Of a stretch of 39,293 nucleotides of DNA, positions 2,524-32,948 are shown in pieces. The position numbers and the translations under genes are program-made. The stretch lies in the sequence record MN187550.1; one strand, written 5' to 3'. This DNA is from Escherichia phage phiv142-3. Positions within the stretch are counted from its first letter, which is position 1. Each line of letters starts with the position of its first letter. The notes under the pieces were generated by a model. The model was not told the origin of the DNA. It searched no databases and worked only from the letters and a program-made list of their open reading frames with translations.

Positions 2524-4653
2524 CTATTCCTCAATACCTAACCTGCTTGAAACCTCCGGCATAACAGTAACCTGAAGGGTTTTTGATGAATCTGTGTTTT
2601 TAATTGCTATGCTGATATTGCCAGAAGTGCTGTTATTGTTTGACACTGTTATAGAGTTTGCATCCACCCCGAGTTTCGAATAAGCATCAGCAAAACTAAG
2701 ACCAACACTTCCACCAACAACTCTATATGAACCATCAATTCTGAATGACGATATATTGTTATTGCTAACATCTCTAATTAGAACCCATATAGAAACGCCC
2801 CTGAAAACAAGGCTTGCCCCTGATGGTATTTGAAGTGATACAGTTCCTGTGGAACCGGGGGGGATACTGCCAGTATATTTAGTTCCGTGCAGATATTTCC
2901 CCGGTAGGTCTAAATACGATGTGTCTGGATGTAATAAATTATGTATATGTCTGCTATCTATGCTTCCAGACAGAACCATAGAATCATTGCCATATTCAAT
3001 TATCCTTCCACCATCGTTACTTATTGTAAGTAATCCTTTGTTTCCTTTATTGTTTCTAACAGTTATATCAGAAGAATCCAGGCGGACAATTGATATATTT
3101 TTTTCTGATCCATGACAATAATTTGATGAAATTTCACCTGTAACAAGTGACGTACATAAAATGTCTGAACTTCCATCACTGTCGCCAGTAATAGTGTTGC
3201 AGGAAATTAATGCACCATATACCAGACCTGTCGGAGATTCTCCAAATTGCTCTATAGTAATCCGTTTTGTGGTATTTGCTGATATGGTTATATTATGAAC
3301 ATCGTCAGTTTGCGATGTTACTTTGATCCTTGATGAAACGGTATTTCCAGAAATAGTAACATTACTTGTATCATCCACCCATAAATATGACGAAAACGTA
3401 TTACCTGATATGACTGAGTTACTCACCATTGAGTTCTCAAGCTCACATGAACCATAGCTATTGTTATGGTCATAATTTCCTATAATCCTTACAAATCCAT
3501 TCTGGTTAATGAAGTTGTATGATGTTGCATTTTGTCCGCCATAAGTTGAGTTATGTGATGTTTCAGCATTTGTAACGCCTATATGTTGAAAATGACCGGC
3601 ATTTACAGAATCAGGAGCAACTGATGTACACCCTATTACTTTTGTGTTTTTGACAATTCTTGAATTAGGGTCATTCTCCAAATAATAGTTTTTTGCAACA
3701 AATGCCGTAGAGTAAAAGAAACCTTCAAATCTATTAAATAAAATCTGAATATCGTCATAATCTCTTTGGTCTTCATTTGCATAGCAATAAAATGCTCTTG
3801 AAGACTCGGAGTAATCCTTGCATTTCTGAACGCCAGATAAAAGTGTTCGGATTCTGCTAGATTTTATTCTAAATCCGTTGTGAATTAACGTTGCATCACC
3901 AACTAATGTTATTGGCTTAAACAATTCAACCTTATCAAAAACAAATTCACCACCATAAAATCCAAGTATAGCCCCTTCTGGTACTGCATTAATAGCATTT
4001 TGAATTGCTACAGTATCATCTGTTATGCCGTCTCCTTTTGCACCAAAATCACGAACACTAATGGTGTCTCTCATCTTATCCTGGAACGTTCGGTACACAG
4101 CCCCAGAACCATACTGAATAAACCAACCAAAACCACCAACAACCCCGGCGATTGCAGCATCGACATAATTACGCATTGAGCGATTATTTACAGCATCCTG
4201 CTCAAGTGATGGATCTGCAAGGTTAGAAATTCTGTTTTGCTTTGCATCGTAATATTTTGCAAGCAGAGAGGGCTTCATCAATGCACGTCTGAACCACCCA
4301 AAACATTGCTGGATCAGCATCGTCAGGTAGTCAAAGGCATCTTCATGCACTTCGGGGAAAAATTTTCCCTGATTGCGAAGGTCTGTCTCCTGCACTACAT
4401 CAAGCACACGATCTATCGTAATTCGCCATCCAGTAGCAAGCGGAGACAGAAGAACCACAGAACCGCCACTATAAGTGCCCGCCCCAGTTACCGTATAACC
4501 GGTATCCAGGACCAATTCTGTTACGTTCCCGTTCAGGTCAGACACCTGAACAACCAGGTCTGATTTTCTGAAAATTCGAAAAGTATACGGAAACGATGTC
4601 GTAACGCCGTTACCGGTGTATTCGTTGTGGTCAACTTCGGTTGAGACCGTCAT
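2524..4653 (-). CDS. tailspike / tail fibre with depolymerase-like C-terminal domain
   Basis: 709 aa. N-terminal ~200 aa resembles the conserved particle-attachment domain of T7 gp17-type podovirus tail fibres (YTGNGVTTSFPYTF...); from ...VRDFGAKGDGITDDT onward it looks like a pectate-lyase-type beta-helix. The C-terminal coding DNA is clearly AT-rich. Confidence 0.75.
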   Translation of the reverse strand: MTVSTEVDHNEYTGNGVTTSFPYTFRIFRKSDLVVQVSDLNGNVTELVLDTGYTVTGAGTYSGGSVVLLSPLATGWRITIDRVLDVVQETDLRNQGKFFPEVHEDAFDYLTMLIQQCFGWFRRALMKPSLLAKYYDAKQNRISNLADPSLEQDAVNNRSMRNYVDAAIAGVVGGFGWFIQYGSGAVYRTFQDKMRDTISVRDFGAKGDGITDDTVAIQNAINAVPEGAILGFYGGEFVFDKVELFKPITLVGDATLIHNGFRIKSSRIRTLLSGVQKCKDYSESSRAFYCYANEDQRDYDDIQILFNRFEGFFYSTAFVAKNYYLENDPNSRIVKNTKVIGCTSVAPDSVNAGHFQHIGVTNAETSHNSTYGGQNATSYNFINQNGFVRIIGNYDHNNSYGSCELENSMVSNSVISGNTFSSYLWVDDTSNVTISGNTVSSRIKVTSQTDDVHNITISANTTKRITIEQFGESPTGLVYGALISCNTITGDSDGSSDILCTSLVTGEISSNYCHGSEKNISIVRLDSSDITVRNNKGNKGLLTISNDGGRIIEYGNDSMVLSGSIDSRHIHNLLHPDTSYLDLPGKYLHGTKYTGSIPPGSTGTVSLQIPSGASLVFRGVSIWVLIRDVSNNNISSFRIDGSYRVVGGSVGLSFADAYSKLGVDANSITVSNNNSTSGNISIAIKNTDSSKTLQVTVMPEVSSRLGIEE

Positions 4654-4829: not shown

Positions 4830-4848
4830 ATTGCATGGAGAAGATAAG

Positions 4849-5106
4849 ATGCAGCAGTATCACTATCCACTGGAAGACGGATTTACCGAAAGGATTCACA
4901 CGCCGGGAGGCGTCAGGTCACTGGTGGAAGGATCGCACTTGATGAAATTACTCCGGGATCTCGATAAGGATGGATTTAATGTCGATGGCCCACTTGCCGA
5001 ACTGACTGCACTGATTAACTACGTCACCAGCTCACAGATGTCTATGCGGGATCTGCAAACACATCTCGACTATTGTGCCGAACAATTACGAAAACAAACC
5101 AGATAA
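4849..5106 (+). CDS. small protein paralogous to the C-terminal domain of the downstream antirepressor
   Basis: 85 aa from the ATG at 4849 (GGAG 8 nt upstream); the track starts at a TTG at 4831. Residues ...LMKLLRDLDKDGFNVDGPLAELTALINYV...RDLQTH align with ...[29 protein letters not shown]...RDIQTH of the 218-aa protein. Confidence 0.55.
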   Translation: MQQYHYPLEDGFTERIHTPGGVRSLVEGSHLMKLLRDLDKDGFNVDGPLAELTALINYVTSSQMSMRDLQTHLDYCAEQLRKQTR

Positions 5107-5109
5107 GGT

Positions 5110-5152
5110 TTGCAATTACCAAATGGAGTGCTTATATTTACCTTTGCGGTAA
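5110..5152 (+). promoter_or_regulatory. promoter (-35 TTGCAA, 17-bp spacer, -10 TATATT) fused to operator S2 TTACCTTTGCGGTAA (5138-5152)
   Basis: Sigma70-like hexamers read from sequence; the last T of the -10 is the first T of the palindrome. Confidence 0.5.
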
Positions 5153-5242
5153 ATTTACATCGCACTCCTCTTGTGCCATAGTAATCGGGCACTGGCAAAA
5201 TCCAGTGCCGGGATTGGTCTCCCGGATTACTAAGTGGCGCAT

Positions 5243-5265
5243 ACCACGCCAGACGTGGTTTTTTT
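5243..5265 (+). terminator. intrinsic terminator (ACCACG-loop-CGTGGT plus T7 tract) in the antirepressor leader
   Basis: GC-rich hairpin followed by TTTTTTT; preceded by two more hairpins (about 5188-5226); about 160 nt upstream of the antirepressor ATG. Confidence 0.5.
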
Positions 5266-5423: not shown

Positions 5424-6080
5424 ATGAACGCTCAACTCATCCCCGTATTCAACGGCACTATATCTAACGAAACAGCCCTACTTTGTAATGCCCGCGATCT
5501 GCACGCTTTTTTAGGTGTTAAAAAGGTGTTTGCAGCATGGATTACAAATCGCATATCAGAATACGAATTCATTGAAAATCAAGACTATATTTTGCTTTCC
5601 AATTTGGGAAAGCAAACATCTGGTAGAGGCGGCCACAACCGCAAAGAGTACCACCTCACCCTTGATACAGCCAAAGAGCTGGCGATGGTCGAGCGTAACG
5701 AAAAAGGTCGTCAGGTGCGACGCTACTTCATTGAATGCGAGAAACGTTTAAGACAACAAGAAACAAAAGTGGAGAAGGTCTTGTCAGGCTTCATGCCCGC
5801 CATTATGGAGGCGATCAAGCTGGAAGACAAAAAAGAATACAGCGCCCCACTGAAGCCCGGCTACCGCAGCCTGATTCATTCTCCGTCTGGTGTTCTCGGC
5901 CTGACGGAGAACTCACTGCTGATGAATCTGCTGAACAAGTTACAGGAAGACGGGCACGATGTATCGGGCGCGGCAGCGGAGCTGACCACCATGTTCTGCT
6001 ACATCGTCGGTGTGAGCAAATGCCTGCGTGATATCCAGACCCACGCGGAGTACATCAACGACAAGGCAGGGTTCTTCTGA
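5424..6080 (+). CDS. antirepressor (AntA-like N-terminal domain plus C-terminal domain)
   Basis: 218 aa; N-terminal region (...[10 protein letters not shown]...[17 protein letters not shown]...) resembles phage AntA/AntB antirepressor domains; GGAG RBS about 9 nt upstream. Confidence 0.7.
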
Positions 6081-6124
6081 CGGGCGGTGGCACAGGGATG
6101 TGCCTTTAAATAATTCTGTACAGA

Positions 6125-6167
6125 TTGCAGACTGTGGGTGAATAGCGTACTATTACCTTAAAGGTAA
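6125..6167 (+). promoter_or_regulatory. promoter (-35 TTGCAG, 17 bp, -10 TACTAT) fused to operator S3 TTACCTTAAAGGTAA (6153-6167)
   Basis: Same promoter-operator fusion as at 5110-5152; the operator is immediately followed by AGGAGG and the ATG at 6180. Confidence 0.55.
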
Positions 6168-6179
6168 AGGAGGCGCGAT

Positions 6180-6347
6180 ATGACAGCGTTGAAAAATCGT
6201 ACTCAGCACAATGAACAAGCCAAGCAATGCTGGGATGTCATTGGAAAAGTTATGCTTGGCCGCGCAAGCAAAGAGCGCGACAAGGATATGGTTTACCAGA
6301 CAGGAACATCTTTCAGCGACTTCAAGGCGGCATTTCGCTCCAAATAG
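6180..6347 (+). CDS. hypothetical 55-aa protein (below the ORF-track size cut-off)
   Basis: ATG with strong AAAGGAGG RBS 7 nt upstream; translation MTALKNRTQHNEQAKQCWDVIGKVMLGRASKERDKDMVYQTGTSFSDFKAAFRSK; first gene after the operator-controlled promoter. Confidence 0.5.
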   Translation: MTALKNRTQHNEQAKQCWDVIGKVMLGRASKERDKDMVYQTGTSFSDFKAAFRSK

Positions 6348-6367
6348 AAGCACATCAGGAGTTTTCC

Positions 6368-6808
6368 TTGAAGTTTAACATTAGAATATCTAATAGTTTT
6401 CTACATGGGGAAAGCAACACCCCTTTCGCTGTAGACGGACCTTTCCTTACTGATGATGAAATAAAAATCATACAAAGTTTTTTAGAGGATGTTGCCAATG
6501 GAAGGGCGCTTGTTGGAAAAAACAAGCCCTCGTGGGTTGATGATAACCATGATAAAATTCCCGGCTCAGACAATTATGAGCAAGAGAATTATTGGCATTA
6601 TCATTGTGGGCCAACATGGTATCCAAACACATTTAAGAATTATACCATTAACTTAAATTTCAACCCTGGCGGAAGGCATTCTAATGAATGCATTCATTAT
6701 GCAAAAAATGATAATGAAATTGTCATTGTTGGATTTTCAAGAGAACACATACCTTTCCTTTCATCAGATGGAAACAACAATCCGCTTTTTAATGATGAAG
6801 AAGAATAG
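6368..6808 (+). CDS. hypothetical AT-rich protein (~146 aa), probable TTG start
   Basis: Long open frame in strongly AT-rich DNA (part of ORF 6227..6808); no in-frame ATG after the upstream gene ends; AGGAG 6 nt upstream of the TTG at 6368; followed by an intrinsic terminator. Confidence 0.45.
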   Translation: MKFNIRISNSFLHGESNTPFAVDGPFLTDDEIKIIQSFLEDVANGRALVGKNKPSWVDDNHDKIPGSDNYEQENYWHYHCGPTWYPNTFKNYTINLNFNPGGRHSNECIHYAKNDNEIVIVGFSREHIPFLSSDGNNNPLFNDEEE

Positions 6809-6830
6809 CCCGCGCTGCGGGCTTTTTTGT
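6807..6830 (+). terminator. intrinsic terminator (GCCCGC-loop-GCGGGC plus T6)
   Basis: GC hairpin overlapping the stop codon, followed by TTTTTTGT. Confidence 0.6.
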
Positions 6831-6900
6831 GGACGAAACAAAAGTCAGTGCTACACTCATTGACGCCACATTGAGGTGGCTTATAGATGGAAATTTCACA

Positions 6901-7062
6901 ATGAAAAAAGCATTTGCTGCACTGTTCGTTTTGTTGTCTCTGGTAGCTTCAACTCAGGCCTTTGCCGGTCGTTGTCAGCACGACAGCGACACTGCCGCTG
7001 ACGGCTCCCGCTGCGGTGGGCGTTCTGCGGATTCCCGCCCGGGCGGCGGTGGCATTCGTTAA
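6901..7062 (+). CDS. small secreted protein (signal peptide plus ~30-aa Gly/Arg/Cys-containing mature peptide)
   Basis: Internal ATG of ORF 6829..7062: MKKAFAALFVLLSLVASTQAFA followed by GRCQHDSDTAADGSRCGGRSADSRPGGGGIR; own TTGACG-N17-ATAGAT promoter-like sequence at 6860-6888 with no TTACC-N5-GGTAA site. Confidence 0.45.
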   Translation: MKKAFAALFVLLSLVASTQAFAGRCQHDSDTAADGSRCGGRSADSRPGGGGIR

Positions 7063-7068
7063 AAACAA

Positions 7069-7097
7069 GGCCGCGAAAGCGGCCTGTGACATGTCAC
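7069..7097. terminator. hairpin GGCCGC-GAAA-GCGGCC plus adjacent palindrome GTGACATGTCAC at a convergent gene junction
   Basis: On the minus strand the hairpin is followed by TTGTTTTT, so it can terminate the long virion operon; the 12-bp palindrome (7086-7097) overlaps the stop codon of the membrane-protein gene. Confidence 0.5.
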
Positions 7098-7390
7098 GTC
7101 CCTTTTCTGAATGATAGCCATTCGAAAAATGATGACATTCCACCGCAGACAATAGCAAAGATGATCCCACCAAAGAAGAGAAGGCCAGCCTGCCACCACT
7201 CCCACCGCCATACATCCACAGCGCCAACCATACCAACAATCGCTCCAACAAATGGAATATAGCTCACGATGAAAGCAATGGGGGCTGCAATTATCCAGTG
7301 CAATCCCCACCATGATTCAAGCCCAGCCATAATTGCTGCCAACTGAAAAAGACCAACGACGATATAAACAATGAATCCTATAGCTTGCAT
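7094..7390 (-). CDS. small multi-TM membrane protein at the end of the virion operon
   Basis: 98 aa from the ATG at 7390 (AGGTGA RBS 4 nt upstream); the track ORF extends to a TTG at 7450; about 4 hydrophobic helices rich in Gly/Ala/Ile/Trp. Confidence 0.5.
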   Translation of the reverse strand: MQAIGFIVYIVVGLFQLAAIMAGLESWWGLHWIIAAPIAFIVSYIPFVGAIVGMVGAVDVWRWEWWQAGLLFFGGIIFAIVCGGMSSFFEWLSFRKGT

Positions 7391-7586
7391 GTAGTCACCT
7401 AATTTACCCAGTAAAAATAAGAGGCCTCCCCTCAATAAGGCTTGCAACAAGAACTACTCCCTGCACAACAAAGATGAACCAGCAAATAGCTTGAGTCTGA
7501 GGGTTAAGAAAATATTTGTAGCGGTCAATAAATAACAATACACCAGAAATTATCACACTCAAAATAATTAAAAACACAACACTTCC

Positions 7587-10061
7587 TTATTGCGGAGTGA
7601 CATCCTGTGGTCGCCACCAGTATGTCTGGTTAAACTCTTTCTTCGAACGTTGCTCCATTTTACGCAAATAACCTGGTGAAAAATACTCCTGCATCTGGTT
7701 AAAGATCATGTGATCGAGAGCCGCCTTTAAGTACCAGAGATTCGCACCTGGCATCAGACCTTTCCCCAGCTTAACCAGATCACCACCAGTCTGCTCATTC
7801 TTCCCTTCCACAGCATTTAACGGTATGCCCTGAGCAATCTTCACTACGTCATCAACCAGACCAGCTACCGGGCCAAGCATCGACGCCAGTGCGCCGCTTC
7901 CGTACCTAGTGTGATCTGACAATAAAAAGTCACCGTAAAGGCCAAGACCACCACCTTTCAGTAGAGCACCAAGCCAAAATTTAGCAGCATCTTCTCCTGT
8001 CATCTCGCGAGGATTACGACCAGACGCAAGGTCGTTAAGTTGCTGCGACAAAGCGCCAAGAATGGTCGTACTGGCAATAAACGTCGCAATATATGCCGCA
8101 CGCCCACCAGCAGATGGAATACCCATAGCGCGTGACCAGTGACGCATAACCACCGAGATAGGGAACGATTTAAACAGGAAAACACTTCTCGTTAATTCAC
8201 CTTTCCATGTTCCACGCTGAATACCAGAACCGGTTATCAGTTGCTCACGTGCTCCCGGTGTAATAACAGCCATATCAACTTCTTCAGTTACGGCACCGAG
8301 CAGTTTACGCATTGCCTCAAATTTCACGCGTTCAGGCTCACCAAGATGTTTAACTGCTGAATCAGGGATACGCATAATGCTTTCCGGTGTCAGCATCGTA
8401 TTATTGCCGTTCCCCCAGTCCTCCTGTTGAGCCAGCTTCCATACGCTCCAGTCTGTGTCAGTAATCCCTTTGCTTTTCAGGATACGAAAATCAGAATCAT
8501 CGAGGCTACGAAGGTCTGGTGTCCGTGACACTACTTCTCCCAGGCTTCCCATCATGGTTACGCCATAGGCGCGCTTGTGCGCATCTGACCATGCTGTAAG
8601 CCCACTGGCACGCATTACCGCCGTTGCAGCCCAACGAGACACAGACGGCCCCATATTATCCATCGCCCAGCGGTTAACGCTGCCAAGTAGAGATTCCATC
8701 GCTAGACCAGCGCGGCGCGCCCGCGCAAGTTCTGTACGGTTCGTTGGGTCCATAGCTTCAAGCTGGTTGCGGAATAACTGGTTCATTGGAAGGTTGGTCA
8801 CCTTCGCAGACAGATACATGGTTCCAAGATCAGAGAACGATGACAGCAACGCGGATCCGAGTCTGCTGGCAACCAGCCAGTTGCGGATATTGTCAGACCA
8901 TCGCGCGATGTGCGGATTCGCTACAGGCTGTGTCTTTCCGGAAATAAAGTTGTACAGATTCTCTGTGTTGTTCGCCAGCCGCTCGACTTTACCGGTTTTA
9001 CTCGGGTTAGCTGTTGCCGTTTCTGCCTTCACCTGATCAAGAAGAGAGCGGAAAACATGATCGGGGTTTGGGCCATATGTTTCCACCAGTGCAATATCTT
9101 TACTGATACCTTCCAGGTGACCGACCATGATTTCCCATAGAGAGCGATCGCCATAAAGTTGTTGATATTGCAGATAGGAATCTGCATCTTTGAAATGTAT
9201 CTGTCGTGATGCATTACCACGGTTAGCACGTGCGCCGGAAATTCGCATTCCGGTATCAGTAAGCTTATTCAGCCCACCAGTAGCGATCGTGTTATAAGCC
9301 TCTCCAAGAAATGAAGACAACTCGGCATCGTTCATCAGTTGTCCATCGGCTCGGATATAATATTTGCGATCCAGCTTACCTATAACATCGCTAACCCACT
9401 TATCCTTTGATACCGCCCCAACCTTTTCCATAGAATGATGTTGAGGGATCCCCCAGTTTTCGAGATAGCCAATGTCCCCACCAGCATCATTAAACCGGCG
9501 GCGCAGTAGCTCTGTCACTTCTCTCCACGCCTTAGCACCTTTTCTTGCTTTAGCATTGCCAGTATTTTGCCCTCGCATTTCATATACCAGGTCACGCACG
9601 CCAGCTTCATCTTCAAACAGGCCAAAAAAGCGAGGATCAACTGCTTCAAATGCCTCCTGCAATTGACTCAATGCATAATCACGAGTGGCTTTTGTTCTGG
9701 ATTCAACAGAGAGGAAATTCGATTTACCGTCTGCATTAAAAGCAATAGTACGGTTAAGAGCGCCAAGTTTCCCATCAGCCCCTTGATAGCTATTGATAAA
9801 TTTATCCAATCTCTGACGTGCGGCTATAGTGAGGGCCACACGACGTTTCTTTAATGCCGCTTCTCGCTGTAATTCTTCAGATGCCAATTGTGCTGCACGA
9901 TATAGCCGCTCTGATTCGGAAAGTTGTCTCCACGACATCGGGTCATCACGAGCAATGGAGCGCATATTTCGATAAATGCGGTCTTCAATGTTCTGTATTT
10001 CTCGCGCCGTTAACGTGCGCTGCGCCGCCTGCTGGACCGCTTGTATACATTCCTGTCTCAT
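7587..10061 (-). CDS. large internal virion / ejection protein (T7 gp16-like position, distal part)
   Basis: 824 aa; position and size within the podovirus-like structural operon; Gly-rich hydrophobic C-terminal region. Confidence 0.6.
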   Translation of the reverse strand: MRQECIQAVQQAAQRTLTAREIQNIEDRIYRNMRSIARDDPMSWRQLSESERLYRAAQLASEELQREAALKKRRVALTIAARQRLDKFINSYQGADGKLGALNRTIAFNADGKSNFLSVESRTKATRDYALSQLQEAFEAVDPRFFGLFEDEAGVRDLVYEMRGQNTGNAKARKGAKAWREVTELLRRRFNDAGGDIGYLENWGIPQHHSMEKVGAVSKDKWVSDVIGKLDRKYYIRADGQLMNDAELSSFLGEAYNTIATGGLNKLTDTGMRISGARANRGNASRQIHFKDADSYLQYQQLYGDRSLWEIMVGHLEGISKDIALVETYGPNPDHVFRSLLDQVKAETATANPSKTGKVERLANNTENLYNFISGKTQPVANPHIARWSDNIRNWLVASRLGSALLSSFSDLGTMYLSAKVTNLPMNQLFRNQLEAMDPTNRTELARARRAGLAMESLLGSVNRWAMDNMGPSVSRWAATAVMRASGLTAWSDAHKRAYGVTMMGSLGEVVSRTPDLRSLDDSDFRILKSKGITDTDWSVWKLAQQEDWGNGNNTMLTPESIMRIPDSAVKHLGEPERVKFEAMRKLLGAVTEEVDMAVITPGAREQLITGSGIQRGTWKGELTRSVFLFKSFPISVVMRHWSRAMGIPSAGGRAAYIATFIASTTILGALSQQLNDLASGRNPREMTGEDAAKFWLGALLKGGGLGLYGDFLLSDHTRYGSGALASMLGPVAGLVDDVVKIAQGIPLNAVEGKNEQTGGDLVKLGKGLMPGANLWYLKAALDHMIFNQMQEYFSPGYLRKMEQRSKKEFNQTYWWRPQDVTPQ

Positions 10062-32363: not shown

Positions 32364-32948
32364 ATGAAAAGTATCCAGGACGTCCGCAGGCAAAATCTCA
32401 ACGACTTGATCGACCGTGAATTCAATGGTGTTCAGACGCGGATGGCTGAAAAACTTGGAACTCAGGCAAATCTGGTAAACCGCTGGGCTCTTGGCAAGAA
32501 GGTTATCGGCGACCAGGTTGCGCGAAAAATTGAAGCTGCCGCCAATAAACCCCGTAACTGGCTTGATATCGATCGCTCGCTTTCTCAGGAAGGTTTTCAG
32601 CCTGTCGGCCCGAGTGATATAGGTCAGCTGGCTGCTCACAACCTGGAACGCTGGATGAGCGAAAGCCGCGACCTTTCAACGCAGGGAAAACTACACCGCG
32701 CATCCGGCGTCGCCCAGGTGACAATCAGCCGCCTGTTAAACAATGAGGTCAGCGTTTCCATTTCCACCCTGGAGAATGTTGCATCCGCATTCGGGCGTCA
32801 TGGCTATGAATTACTGATTCACCCGCACGACCCTGCGACTATCAACTATGACCGCTCGCGCTACGCATTGTTACCCGAAACCGAGAAAGCAAAGATCGAA
32901 AGTTACATTGAATTTGTCATCAACCAGAACGAAAAAAACAAACAATAA
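32364..32948 (+). CDS. immunity repressor, tandem-HTH type without a recognisable autopeptidase domain
   Basis: 194 aa; two XRE-like HTH segments (...QTRMAEKLGTQANLVNRWALGKK... and ...LHRASGVAQVTISRLLNNEV...); no Ala-Gly/Ser...Lys S24-like motifs seen; divergent from cro-like gene. Confidence 0.65.
   Translation: MKSIQDVRRQNLNDLIDREFNGVQTRMAEKLGTQANLVNRWALGKKVIGDQVARKIEAAANKPRNWLDIDRSLSQEGFQPVGPSDIGQLAAHNLERWMSESRDLSTQGKLHRASGVAQVTISRLLNNEVSVSISTLENVASAFGRHGYELLIHPHDPATINYDRSRYALLPETEKAKIESYIEFVINQNEKNKQ

Follow-up and report, generated by a model that had tools for sequence, protein, structure and literature searches.

Introduction

Classical type II toxin–antitoxin (TA) operons encode an antitoxin that binds DNA and autoregulates the operon, and toxins of the RelE/ParE superfamily (RelE, YafQ, YoeB, HigB, ParE) are about 85–100 amino acids (aa) long. 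The present analysis concerns a 39,293-nucleotide (nt) stretch of DNA from Escherichia phage phiv142-3 (MN187550.1; the whole stretch is referred to as the window) and, within it, a pair of genes encoding proteins of 55 and 146 aa, which is followed by a gene for a 53-aa protein. Region 6125–6830 is read here, with moderate confidence, as a compact type II TA-like operon that forms exchangeable cargo in an accessory slot of the prophage, with the 55-aa product as putative antitoxin and the 146-aa product as putative toxin.

Several described systems are comparable in part. To the RelE/ParE toxins the 146-aa protein has no detectable sequence-profile kinship; it is longer, with a 28-residue structured insert, and the invariant set of RelE differs from its histidine-rich set of H77, H79, H110 and H127. 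Whereas ParE targets gyrase, the invariant histidine and lysine residues suggest a nuclease here. Unlike classical antitoxins, the 55-aa partner has no ribbon–helix–helix, helix–turn–helix (HTH) or Phd domain, and the operator ahead of the pair appears to be a site of the phage repressor and not one of the antitoxin. An antitoxin without a DNA-binding domain is known from PaaA2–ParE2, a prophage-related TA system of E. coli O157; the paaR2-paaA2-parE2 operon has its own regulator gene, whereas the pair analysed here has no third gene and a phage operator instead. YafO is a translation-dependent mRNA interferase of the RelE superfamily, and yafNO is controlled by LexA (PMC2814082). Two likenesses link that system to the present locus: in phage TL-2011b, a YafO-family pair lies in the same slot and behind the same operator as the 55/146 pair, and in both cases an external repressor tied to DNA damage or induction would be in control (LexA for yafNO; here, as far as sequence tells, the phage repressor). 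The Pfam YafO model, however, did not match the 146-aa protein (E > 1), and by Pfam the 55-aa partner is unrelated to YafN. Finally, phage morons of the Hendrix type (lambdoid and P22-like phages) are alike in atypical GC content, an own terminator and presence or absence among close relatives. A moron in the strict sense is expressed from the repressed prophage, whereas the 55/146 unit bears an immunity operator and is probably silent there.

Predicted fold and conserved residues of the 146-aa protein

The features of the region, in the numbering of the window, are as follows.

6125–6153, plus strand: weak sigma-70-like promoter by direct reading (TTGCAG 6125–6130, 17-nt spacer, TACTAT 6148–6153)
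6153–6167, no strand assigned: operator-like palindrome TTACCTTAAAGGTAA, a copy of TTACC-N5-GGTAA, abutting the ribosome-binding site (RBS) of the 55-aa gene
6180–6347, plus strand: 55-aa open reading frame (ORF), ATG start, RBS AAGGAGG (6167–6173) 6 nt upstream; WP_000125783.1, phrog_8607
6368–6808, plus strand: 146-aa ORF, TTG start, RBS AGGAG (6357–6361) 6 nt upstream; WP_000671198.1, phrog_5954
6807–6829, plus strand: intrinsic terminator, stem AGCCCGC/GCGGGCT (6807–6823, 7 bp, 6 of them GC) followed by TTTTTT
6830–6857 and 6861–6888, plus strand: TGGACG-N16-TACACT and TTGACG-N16-TATAGA, respectively, by direct reading; promoter-like only
6901–7062, plus strand: 53-aa ORF, ATG start; WP_000708858.1, phrog_14503

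Homologues of the 146-aa protein were retrieved at E-values down to 2.6e-45, and the family amounts to 34 clusters at 90% identity, or 68 representatives at 50% identity among 1.84 billion proteins. Named source organisms are members of Enterobacterales genera or a Pasteurellaceae bacterium, the toxin-like family being attributed to Klebsiella, Serratia, Pectobacterium, Erwinia, Proteus and Pasteurellaceae. PHROGs places the 146-aa protein in phrog_5954 and the 55-aa protein in phrog_8607, both of 'unknown function'. Searches of Pfam, NCBIfam, PADLOC and PDB sequences with the three proteins and with 26 and 56 family members brought no meaningful match; neither the 146-aa protein nor the 56 family members had a match at E ≤ 1, and the family profile had no PDB match. 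The preliminary description, made from the letters of the sequence, had stated that none of the three products matches a recognised family, which holds for named families.

For the 146-aa protein, that statement is qualified by the predicted fold. The AlphaFold2 model, calculated from a 26-sequence alignment (predicted local distance difference test (pLDDT) 92.5, predicted template modelling score (pTM) 0.87), shows a compact alpha/beta fold with N-terminal helices packed against an antiparallel beta-sheet. When compared using Foldseek, families of the RelE/ParE superfamily ranked first at non-significant E-values, and no match was found among the viral structures of BFVD. According to the model, the protein has a RelE/ParE-superfamily toxin fold with a long structured insert; its membership in the superfamily rests on this predicted fold. 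The function proposed earlier, in the broad terms of defence, anti-defence or lysogenic conversion, is narrowed by the fold to a module of the TA type.

Across 56 representatives (28–54% identity), G50, N52, K53, H77, H79, N99 and H127 were invariant and W76, Y78, G81, H110, Y111 and F130 near-invariant. In the modelled secondary structure, K53, H77, H79, H127 and H110 are located on or beside the last three strands, with H77 and H79 on strand 75–79, H110 on strand 108–113 and H127 just past the last strand (117–124). Since histidines, a lysine and asparagines are kept at such divergence, the pattern is like that of an active site, and the modelled positions may match the catalytic placement in RelE-fold RNases. 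A zinc-binding HxHC site was also considered and rejected, because relatives have S, A, I, T or F in place of C80.

The same residues bear on a RelE-fold protein that is no nuclease and acts instead, together with the 55-aa product as co-factor, as a ribosome- or RNA-binding regulator or by inhibiting a toxin or defence protein of the host. Such a protein would agree with a likeness that exists at fold level only and with a size 60% above that of RelE, including the long conserved insert 80–107; the four invariant or near-invariant histidines, one lysine and two asparagines kept over 28–54% identity, and the tight two-gene architecture kept on plasmid, chromosome and phage, make it very unlikely.

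The 55-aa partner and the two-gene module

A homologous partner was located immediately upstream of the large gene in 8 independent contexts, and partners of 55–184 aa with a conserved C-terminal motif stand beside every homologue examined but the Pasteurellaceae one, whose neighbours were not compared. In Serratia and Pectobacterium, the prophages that carry the pair are epsilon15-like, and it occupies the same slot there, following a Bro-N gene. In Erwinia persicina it stands by itself, flanked by accA and an IF-2B-family gene, and no phage lies in its vicinity; further copies are present in Proteus and on a plasmid-like contig of 6.5 kb that carries Rop. Longer proteins, too, have the motif as their C-terminal part, with 102 aa in the nin regions of Klebsiella lambdoid prophages and 184 aa beside priC. 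Judged from these contexts, the 55/146 pair is a mobile two-gene module that occurs outside phages as well. A 120-aa toxin-like homologue was found in a different phage context on a Pasteurellaceae contig (L010, 1–3363), where it lies directly 3′ of a gene for a 2935-aa polyvalent MuF/ART-PolyVal protein and a 159-aa gene.

The 55-aa protein was modelled as a long helix (residues 2–36), a linker and a second helix (45–53) at a pLDDT of 74. Pfam gave no match for it, and the modelled secondary structure shows no evident DNA-binding fold. The gene differs from its Serratia counterpart at 63 nucleotides, 37 of them in third positions; 18 of the codon differences are synonymous and 21 nonsynonymous. 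Two traits of the pair are signatures of a TA-type module: the partner is kept across phage, plasmid and chromosome, and the small gene comes first with a strong RBS and an ATG, the large gene second with a weak start. The strong RBS of the 55-aa gene, noticed beforehand, was found as AAGGAGG 6 nt before the ATG.

Annotation, start codon and composition

In E. coli prophages at least 99% identical to the region, RefSeq (Prokaryotic Genome Annotation Pipeline, PGAP) annotates exactly these three coding sequences, identical to the ORFs first described and with the TTG start included (RefSeq prophage locus coordinate + 99 = window coordinate). At a coverage of at least 80%, the cassette was present in 76 of 5426 complete E. 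coli genomes (~1.4%), and about 420 further E. coli genomes match part of the cassette query only, at 95–99% identity.

The AT-richness of the 146-codon frame was borne out, with 35.6% GC (30.6% at third codon positions) vs 49.0% for the window, which places it in the lowest 1.75% of 441-nt windows. Its companions differ: at 47% GC, the 55-aa gene shows no AT-richness, and the 53-aa gene, with 58.6%, is rich in GC. Region 6350–6830 holds a run of 152 codons without a stop, a length reached in 4 of 2000 dinucleotide shuffles. Upstream, the frame stays open as far as an ATG at 6227, giving a 193-aa ORF that overlaps the 55-aa gene; the earlier statement that the frame has no in-frame ATG is correct only downstream of the 55-aa gene. 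Initiation at AGGAG-TTG, as first proposed, agrees with the PGAP start and is settled by the start codons of the orthologues (TTG in Serratia and Pectobacterium, GTG in Erwinia), together with an in-frame stop 4 codons 5′ of the orthologue start in Serratia and Erwinia, where the upstream codons were read.

That the frame is no real gene, or that its true product starts at 6227, is thus extremely unlikely. Some gene callers did give versions of 193–195 aa, as the open frame allows, but the 68 representative homologues, with the E-values given above, are conserved over their full length from the TTG-equivalent codon onwards; Serratia and Erwinia have stops just upstream of it, AGGAG lies 6 nt before the TTG, and 91 of the 162 nucleotide differences from the Serratia gene fall on third positions.

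The terminator overlaps the TAG stop of the 146-aa gene and closes the two-gene unit, in line with the terminator first noted, and an equivalent hairpin is present 3′ of the Serratia orthologue. An Rfam Trp_leader match at 6724–6830 (21.5 bits, gathering score 41) was dismissed as merely this terminator hairpin.

Operator and promoter of the pair

The motif TTACC-N5-GGTAA occurs at 15 sites in the window vs 0.70 expected, and 0 of 100 shuffles reached 15, so that the operator first noted before the 55-aa gene is one of a set. The window-wide motif scan gave the following sites.

1787, 4758, 5138, 6153, 23656, 26454, 26472, 29902, 29964, 31909, 32246, 32294, 33006, 33068, 39129

Pairs of sites lie on both sides of the gene of a 194-aa HTH protein (32364–32948; HTH_3, E 1e-9), and single sites ahead of a 91-aa gene (4758) and of the antirepressor leader (5138); several operons in all have one such site in front of them. 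On account of this distribution, the motif is presumably the dispersed operator set of the immunity repressor. TL-2011b, Serratia and Pectobacterium also have it ahead of their equivalent cassettes, and it is missing from the Erwinia, Proteus, plasmid-like and priC-linked copies of the module. A module-intrinsic antitoxin operator was therefore rejected, as the palindrome is absent from the non-phage copies and has 15 copies phage-wide, including those around the repressor gene. The palindrome TCTGTACAGA at 6115–6124 was likewise rejected as a second operator or LexA box, since it is not over-represented. Literature searches, with the epsilon15 genome paper outside them, yielded nothing usable on the protein accessions or on the phiV10/epsilon15 operator.

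The TACTAT −10 element touches the operator, and transcription of the pair is probably gated by the repressor, which argues against its expression in the lysogen. The repressor operator on the pair's promoter would equally suit an RNase of the lytic cycle, made early after inactivation of the repressor and degrading host or selected mRNAs for the phage; the 55-aa protein would then serve as a timer, a chaperone or a specificity factor. The pair also shares an operator-controlled plus-strand block with a c4-like RNA and the antirepressor, and the majority of homologues are in prophages. Against a purely lytic role count the copies without surrounding phage in the Erwinia chromosome and on the Rop-type plasmid-like contig; moreover, phiV10 has nothing in the slot and other close relatives have unrelated cargo there, so that the pair is dispensable for the lytic cycle. 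On balance, host takeover of this kind is considered improbable, and the pair is further treated as a TA-type module.

Two Klebsiella lambdoid prophages with differing cI regions (L011 and L012) each contain a single ATTACCATTAAGGTAAT at 9391–9405, which precedes a nin-region cassette of 95, 102 and 161 aa holding the partner and toxin-like homologues; no other exact copy of ATTACCATTAAGGTAAT was found in 20 kb of these prophages. The epsilon15-type operator seems to have moved along with the cassette into heteroimmune phages. Because the operator travels with it, the cassette could be controlled in trans by an epsilon15-type repressor from a second prophage in the same cell, and cross-talk between prophages could arise in this way.

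Accessory slot

Between the antirepressor gene and the 53-aa gene, the cargo varies among close relatives as listed.

phiV10: slot empty, 53-aa gene also missing
TL-2011b: 59-aa gene and YafO_toxin protein (PF13957, 26.1 bits, cutoff 25), behind the same operator
EC.W1-9: 108-aa protein and DUF2335 protein
Klebsiella phage BUCT711: DUF2335 protein
ST512-KPC3phi13.3: pair of 70 and 132 aa

By this comparison of gene orders, Uetakevirus prophages have a hot spot for cargo in this slot. All three genes had been grouped in the preliminary description as one moron cassette. What stands is the accessory cargo in a variable slot, together with the moron-like composition, terminator and presence or absence; the three genes form two units, however, the 53-aa gene belonging to the backbone, and the operator speaks against lysogen expression of the 55/146 unit.

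Hot spots with alternative alleles are also known for defence genes, and anti-phage defence or superinfection exclusion of the TA or abortive-infection type was accordingly weighed. The pair would then kill or arrest the infected cell, either through low expression in the lysogen or when the repressor is lost to an invader's antirepressor or to DNA damage. The RelE-like fold of the model and the atypical composition are compatible with such a function. No PADLOC model matched, the operator predicts repression in the lysogen and no sensor component is evident. In the lysogen of the related Uetakevirus ZX5, the tested phenotypes were unchanged, phage resistance not being among those listed (PMC9782041). 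Defence is therefore held to be an unlikely role.

The 53-aa gene

The 53-aa gene is identical in TL-2011b, HEMP4 and EC.W1-9 and has 82–86% identity in three Klebsiella phages. Relative to the Klebsiella copies, 21–23 synonymous and 7–9 nonsynonymous codon differences were counted, with 28 of 39–40 nucleotide differences at third positions; the part encoding the mature peptide, with 13–15 synonymous and 3 nonsynonymous differences, is better conserved than the signal peptide. From this pattern, the gene is real and under purifying selection. It is a GC-rich gene of the backbone and keeps its position as the upstream cargo varies.

By direct reading, the product consists of a putative signal peptide MKKAFAALFVLLSLVASTQAFA and a 31-aa peptide rich in Gly, Arg and Asp with two conserved cysteines. 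The n-h-c layout is MKK, AFAALFVLLSLVA and STQAFA↓G, with an AFA↓G site, no lipobox and no cysteine adjoining the site; the mature peptide starts with GRCQHDSDTAADGSRCGGRSADSRPGG, and both cysteines are kept. The product is probably a Sec-exported, periplasmic 31-aa peptide looped by a disulfide, and the database label 'transmembrane anchored protein' (phrog_14503) seems to reflect the hydrophobic leader only. The PHROGs search gave 'membrane associated protein' for the product.

As first stated, no operator accompanies this gene, TTACC-N5-GGTAA being absent between 6167 and 23656. Of the elements at 6830–6857 and 6861–6888, neither was called by the promoter scan; a weak promoter-like element TGGA(C/T)G-N16/17-TA(C/A)A(C/A)T is common to the window and the Klebsiella phages. 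The idea of expression in the lysogen thus appears to fit solely the 53-aa gene, which on these comparisons belongs to the backbone and not to the insert.

Proposed mode of action and points against it

From these features we infer toxicity, RNA cleavage, neutralisation, repressor binding and the timing of expression of the pair as follows. The 146-aa product would be an endoribonuclease, probably an mRNA interferase, with an active site formed by the invariant K53, H77 and H79 (alternate residues on one strand), H110 and H127. The 55-aa product would be its cognate neutraliser, an extended two-helix peptide that wraps around the toxin in the manner of PaaA2 or of the C-terminal part of RelB. 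An excess of antitoxin could result from the strong RBS and ATG of the first gene as compared with the weak TTG/GTG start of the toxin gene, a start that is kept in four lineages. Because the modelled partner lacks a DNA-binding part, autoregulation would not be expected; control would have passed to the phage immunity repressor through TTACC-N5-GGTAA. In the lysogen, the pair would be expressed weakly or not at all, and inactivation of the repressor, or infection, would switch it on, in parallel to E. coli yafNO under LexA, and the separate 53-aa peptide gene would remain outside this gating.

A more novel form of this proposal is unlikely: a TA pair without self-regulation that is wired to the immunity repressor, so that the RNase is freed when the repressor falls. 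The trigger would then be induction or the antirepressor of an invader, and the role that of an induction-coupled translation brake or of an abortive switch.

The TA-type reading is opposed by several points. The 146-aa protein and its family have no significant sequence link to any toxin family in Pfam, NCBIfam, PADLOC or the PDB profile search, and where the invariant residues lie with respect to the RelE active site was read from the secondary structure alone. The partner model is modest (pLDDT 74, pTM 0.36, shallow alignment), and in Pasteurellaceae the neighbouring genes (159 aa, 70 aa) are without demonstrated kinship to the 55-aa partner. The promoter at 6125–6153 is weak (3/6 and 4/6 matches), and the consensus scan chose another promoter-like site, GTGGCA-16-AATAAT at 6087–6114, in its place. 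Repressor gating is uncommon for addiction or defence TA systems. Alignment to the YafO alignment by hhalign was non-significant (E 0.014–0.029, probability 1.7–3.2%).

In a permissive hhalign run, the 146-aa family and YafO were colinear over residues 22–129, with WHYH/AHIH, IHY/HLVY and S-EH/PEPH paired; no similarity was detected by BLASTP of the 146-aa protein against the YafO-like protein of TL-2011b or by the family hidden Markov model against YafO. With no Pfam YafO match and a weak hhalign score, a relation to YafO beyond superfamily level is unproven.

Genome setting and neighbouring genes

In a Megablast search, the window matched phage HEMP4 at 97.8% identity, and TL-2011b, ZX5 and phiV10 were also matched; these matches place it among the epsilon15/phiV10-like (Uetakevirus) phages or prophages of E. 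coli. The neighbours of the region are listed below.

2524–4653, minus strand: tail-spike gene, 709 aa, left neighbour
5424–6080, plus strand: gene of an AntA/Bro-type antirepressor, 218 aa (PF08346, E 4e-26), in the same short plus-strand region
7068–7085, no strand assigned (called on the minus strand): GC-rich hairpin AGGCCGC-TTTC-GCGGCCT, between the 53-aa gene and the convergent minus-strand membrane-protein genes
From 7587, minus strand: block of virion and ejection genes, right neighbour

The C-terminal two-thirds of the tail-spike gene (2524–4000, minus strand) has 31–37% GC vs 49% for the window and is, within the profiled part of the window, the sole other strongly AT-rich stretch; it is probably a horizontally exchanged receptor-binding domain. 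Convergent on the 53-aa gene, two small, very hydrophobic ORFs lie on the minus strand at 7094–7390 and 7404–7577. The first encodes 98 aa from an ATG (phrog_3075, 'unknown function') with a faint holin-like Pfam match (E 0.027), and the second 57 aa. Annotation of the 98-aa family does not go beyond 'hypothetical'; in phiV10, the corresponding place is taken by a 'putative integral membrane protein'.

Upstream of the antirepressor gene, Rfam matches above the gathering score were obtained for isrK (RF01394, 5189–5265, 67.7 bits) and C4 antisense RNA (RF01695, 5290–5374, 61.2 bits), and the c4 a1/b1 target element at 5176–5228 (plus strand) scored 39.9, under its gathering score. These RNA matches are accompanied by a terminator-like hairpin at 5243–5259 and the operator at 5138. 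The region from 5138 to the antirepressor gene looks like a P1/P7-type immI locus, in which a repressor-controlled promoter leads to a c4-like RNA and then to the antirepressor. A 91-aa ORF at 4831–5106 (plus strand, phrog_450) has 45% identity (E 2e-21) to the C-terminal 78 residues of AntA, and the 314-aa Ant of TL-2011b ends in the same C-terminal module. By sequence comparison, this common C-terminal domain is shuffled among antirepressor-like genes, each with its own operator upstream.

Just past the antirepressor stop codon, a hairpin GGCACA-GGGA-TGTGCC at 6091–6106 (plus strand) is followed by TTTAAATAATT. It was not picked up by the terminator scan and may be a weak terminator that partially insulates the 55/146 unit from read-through.

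Significance

The family is what is new here, the kind of system, TA, being already well known. Two families of 'hypothetical protein', phrog_5954 and phrog_8607, gain a concrete, testable function. If confirmed, the 146-aa protein would represent a new histidine-rich branch of RelE/ParE toxins with a new minimal antitoxin, and the pair would be a TA operon run by a prophage immunity repressor and not by its own antitoxin, which would bear on the timing of prophage cargo expression and on the distinction between phage-serving and host-serving modules.

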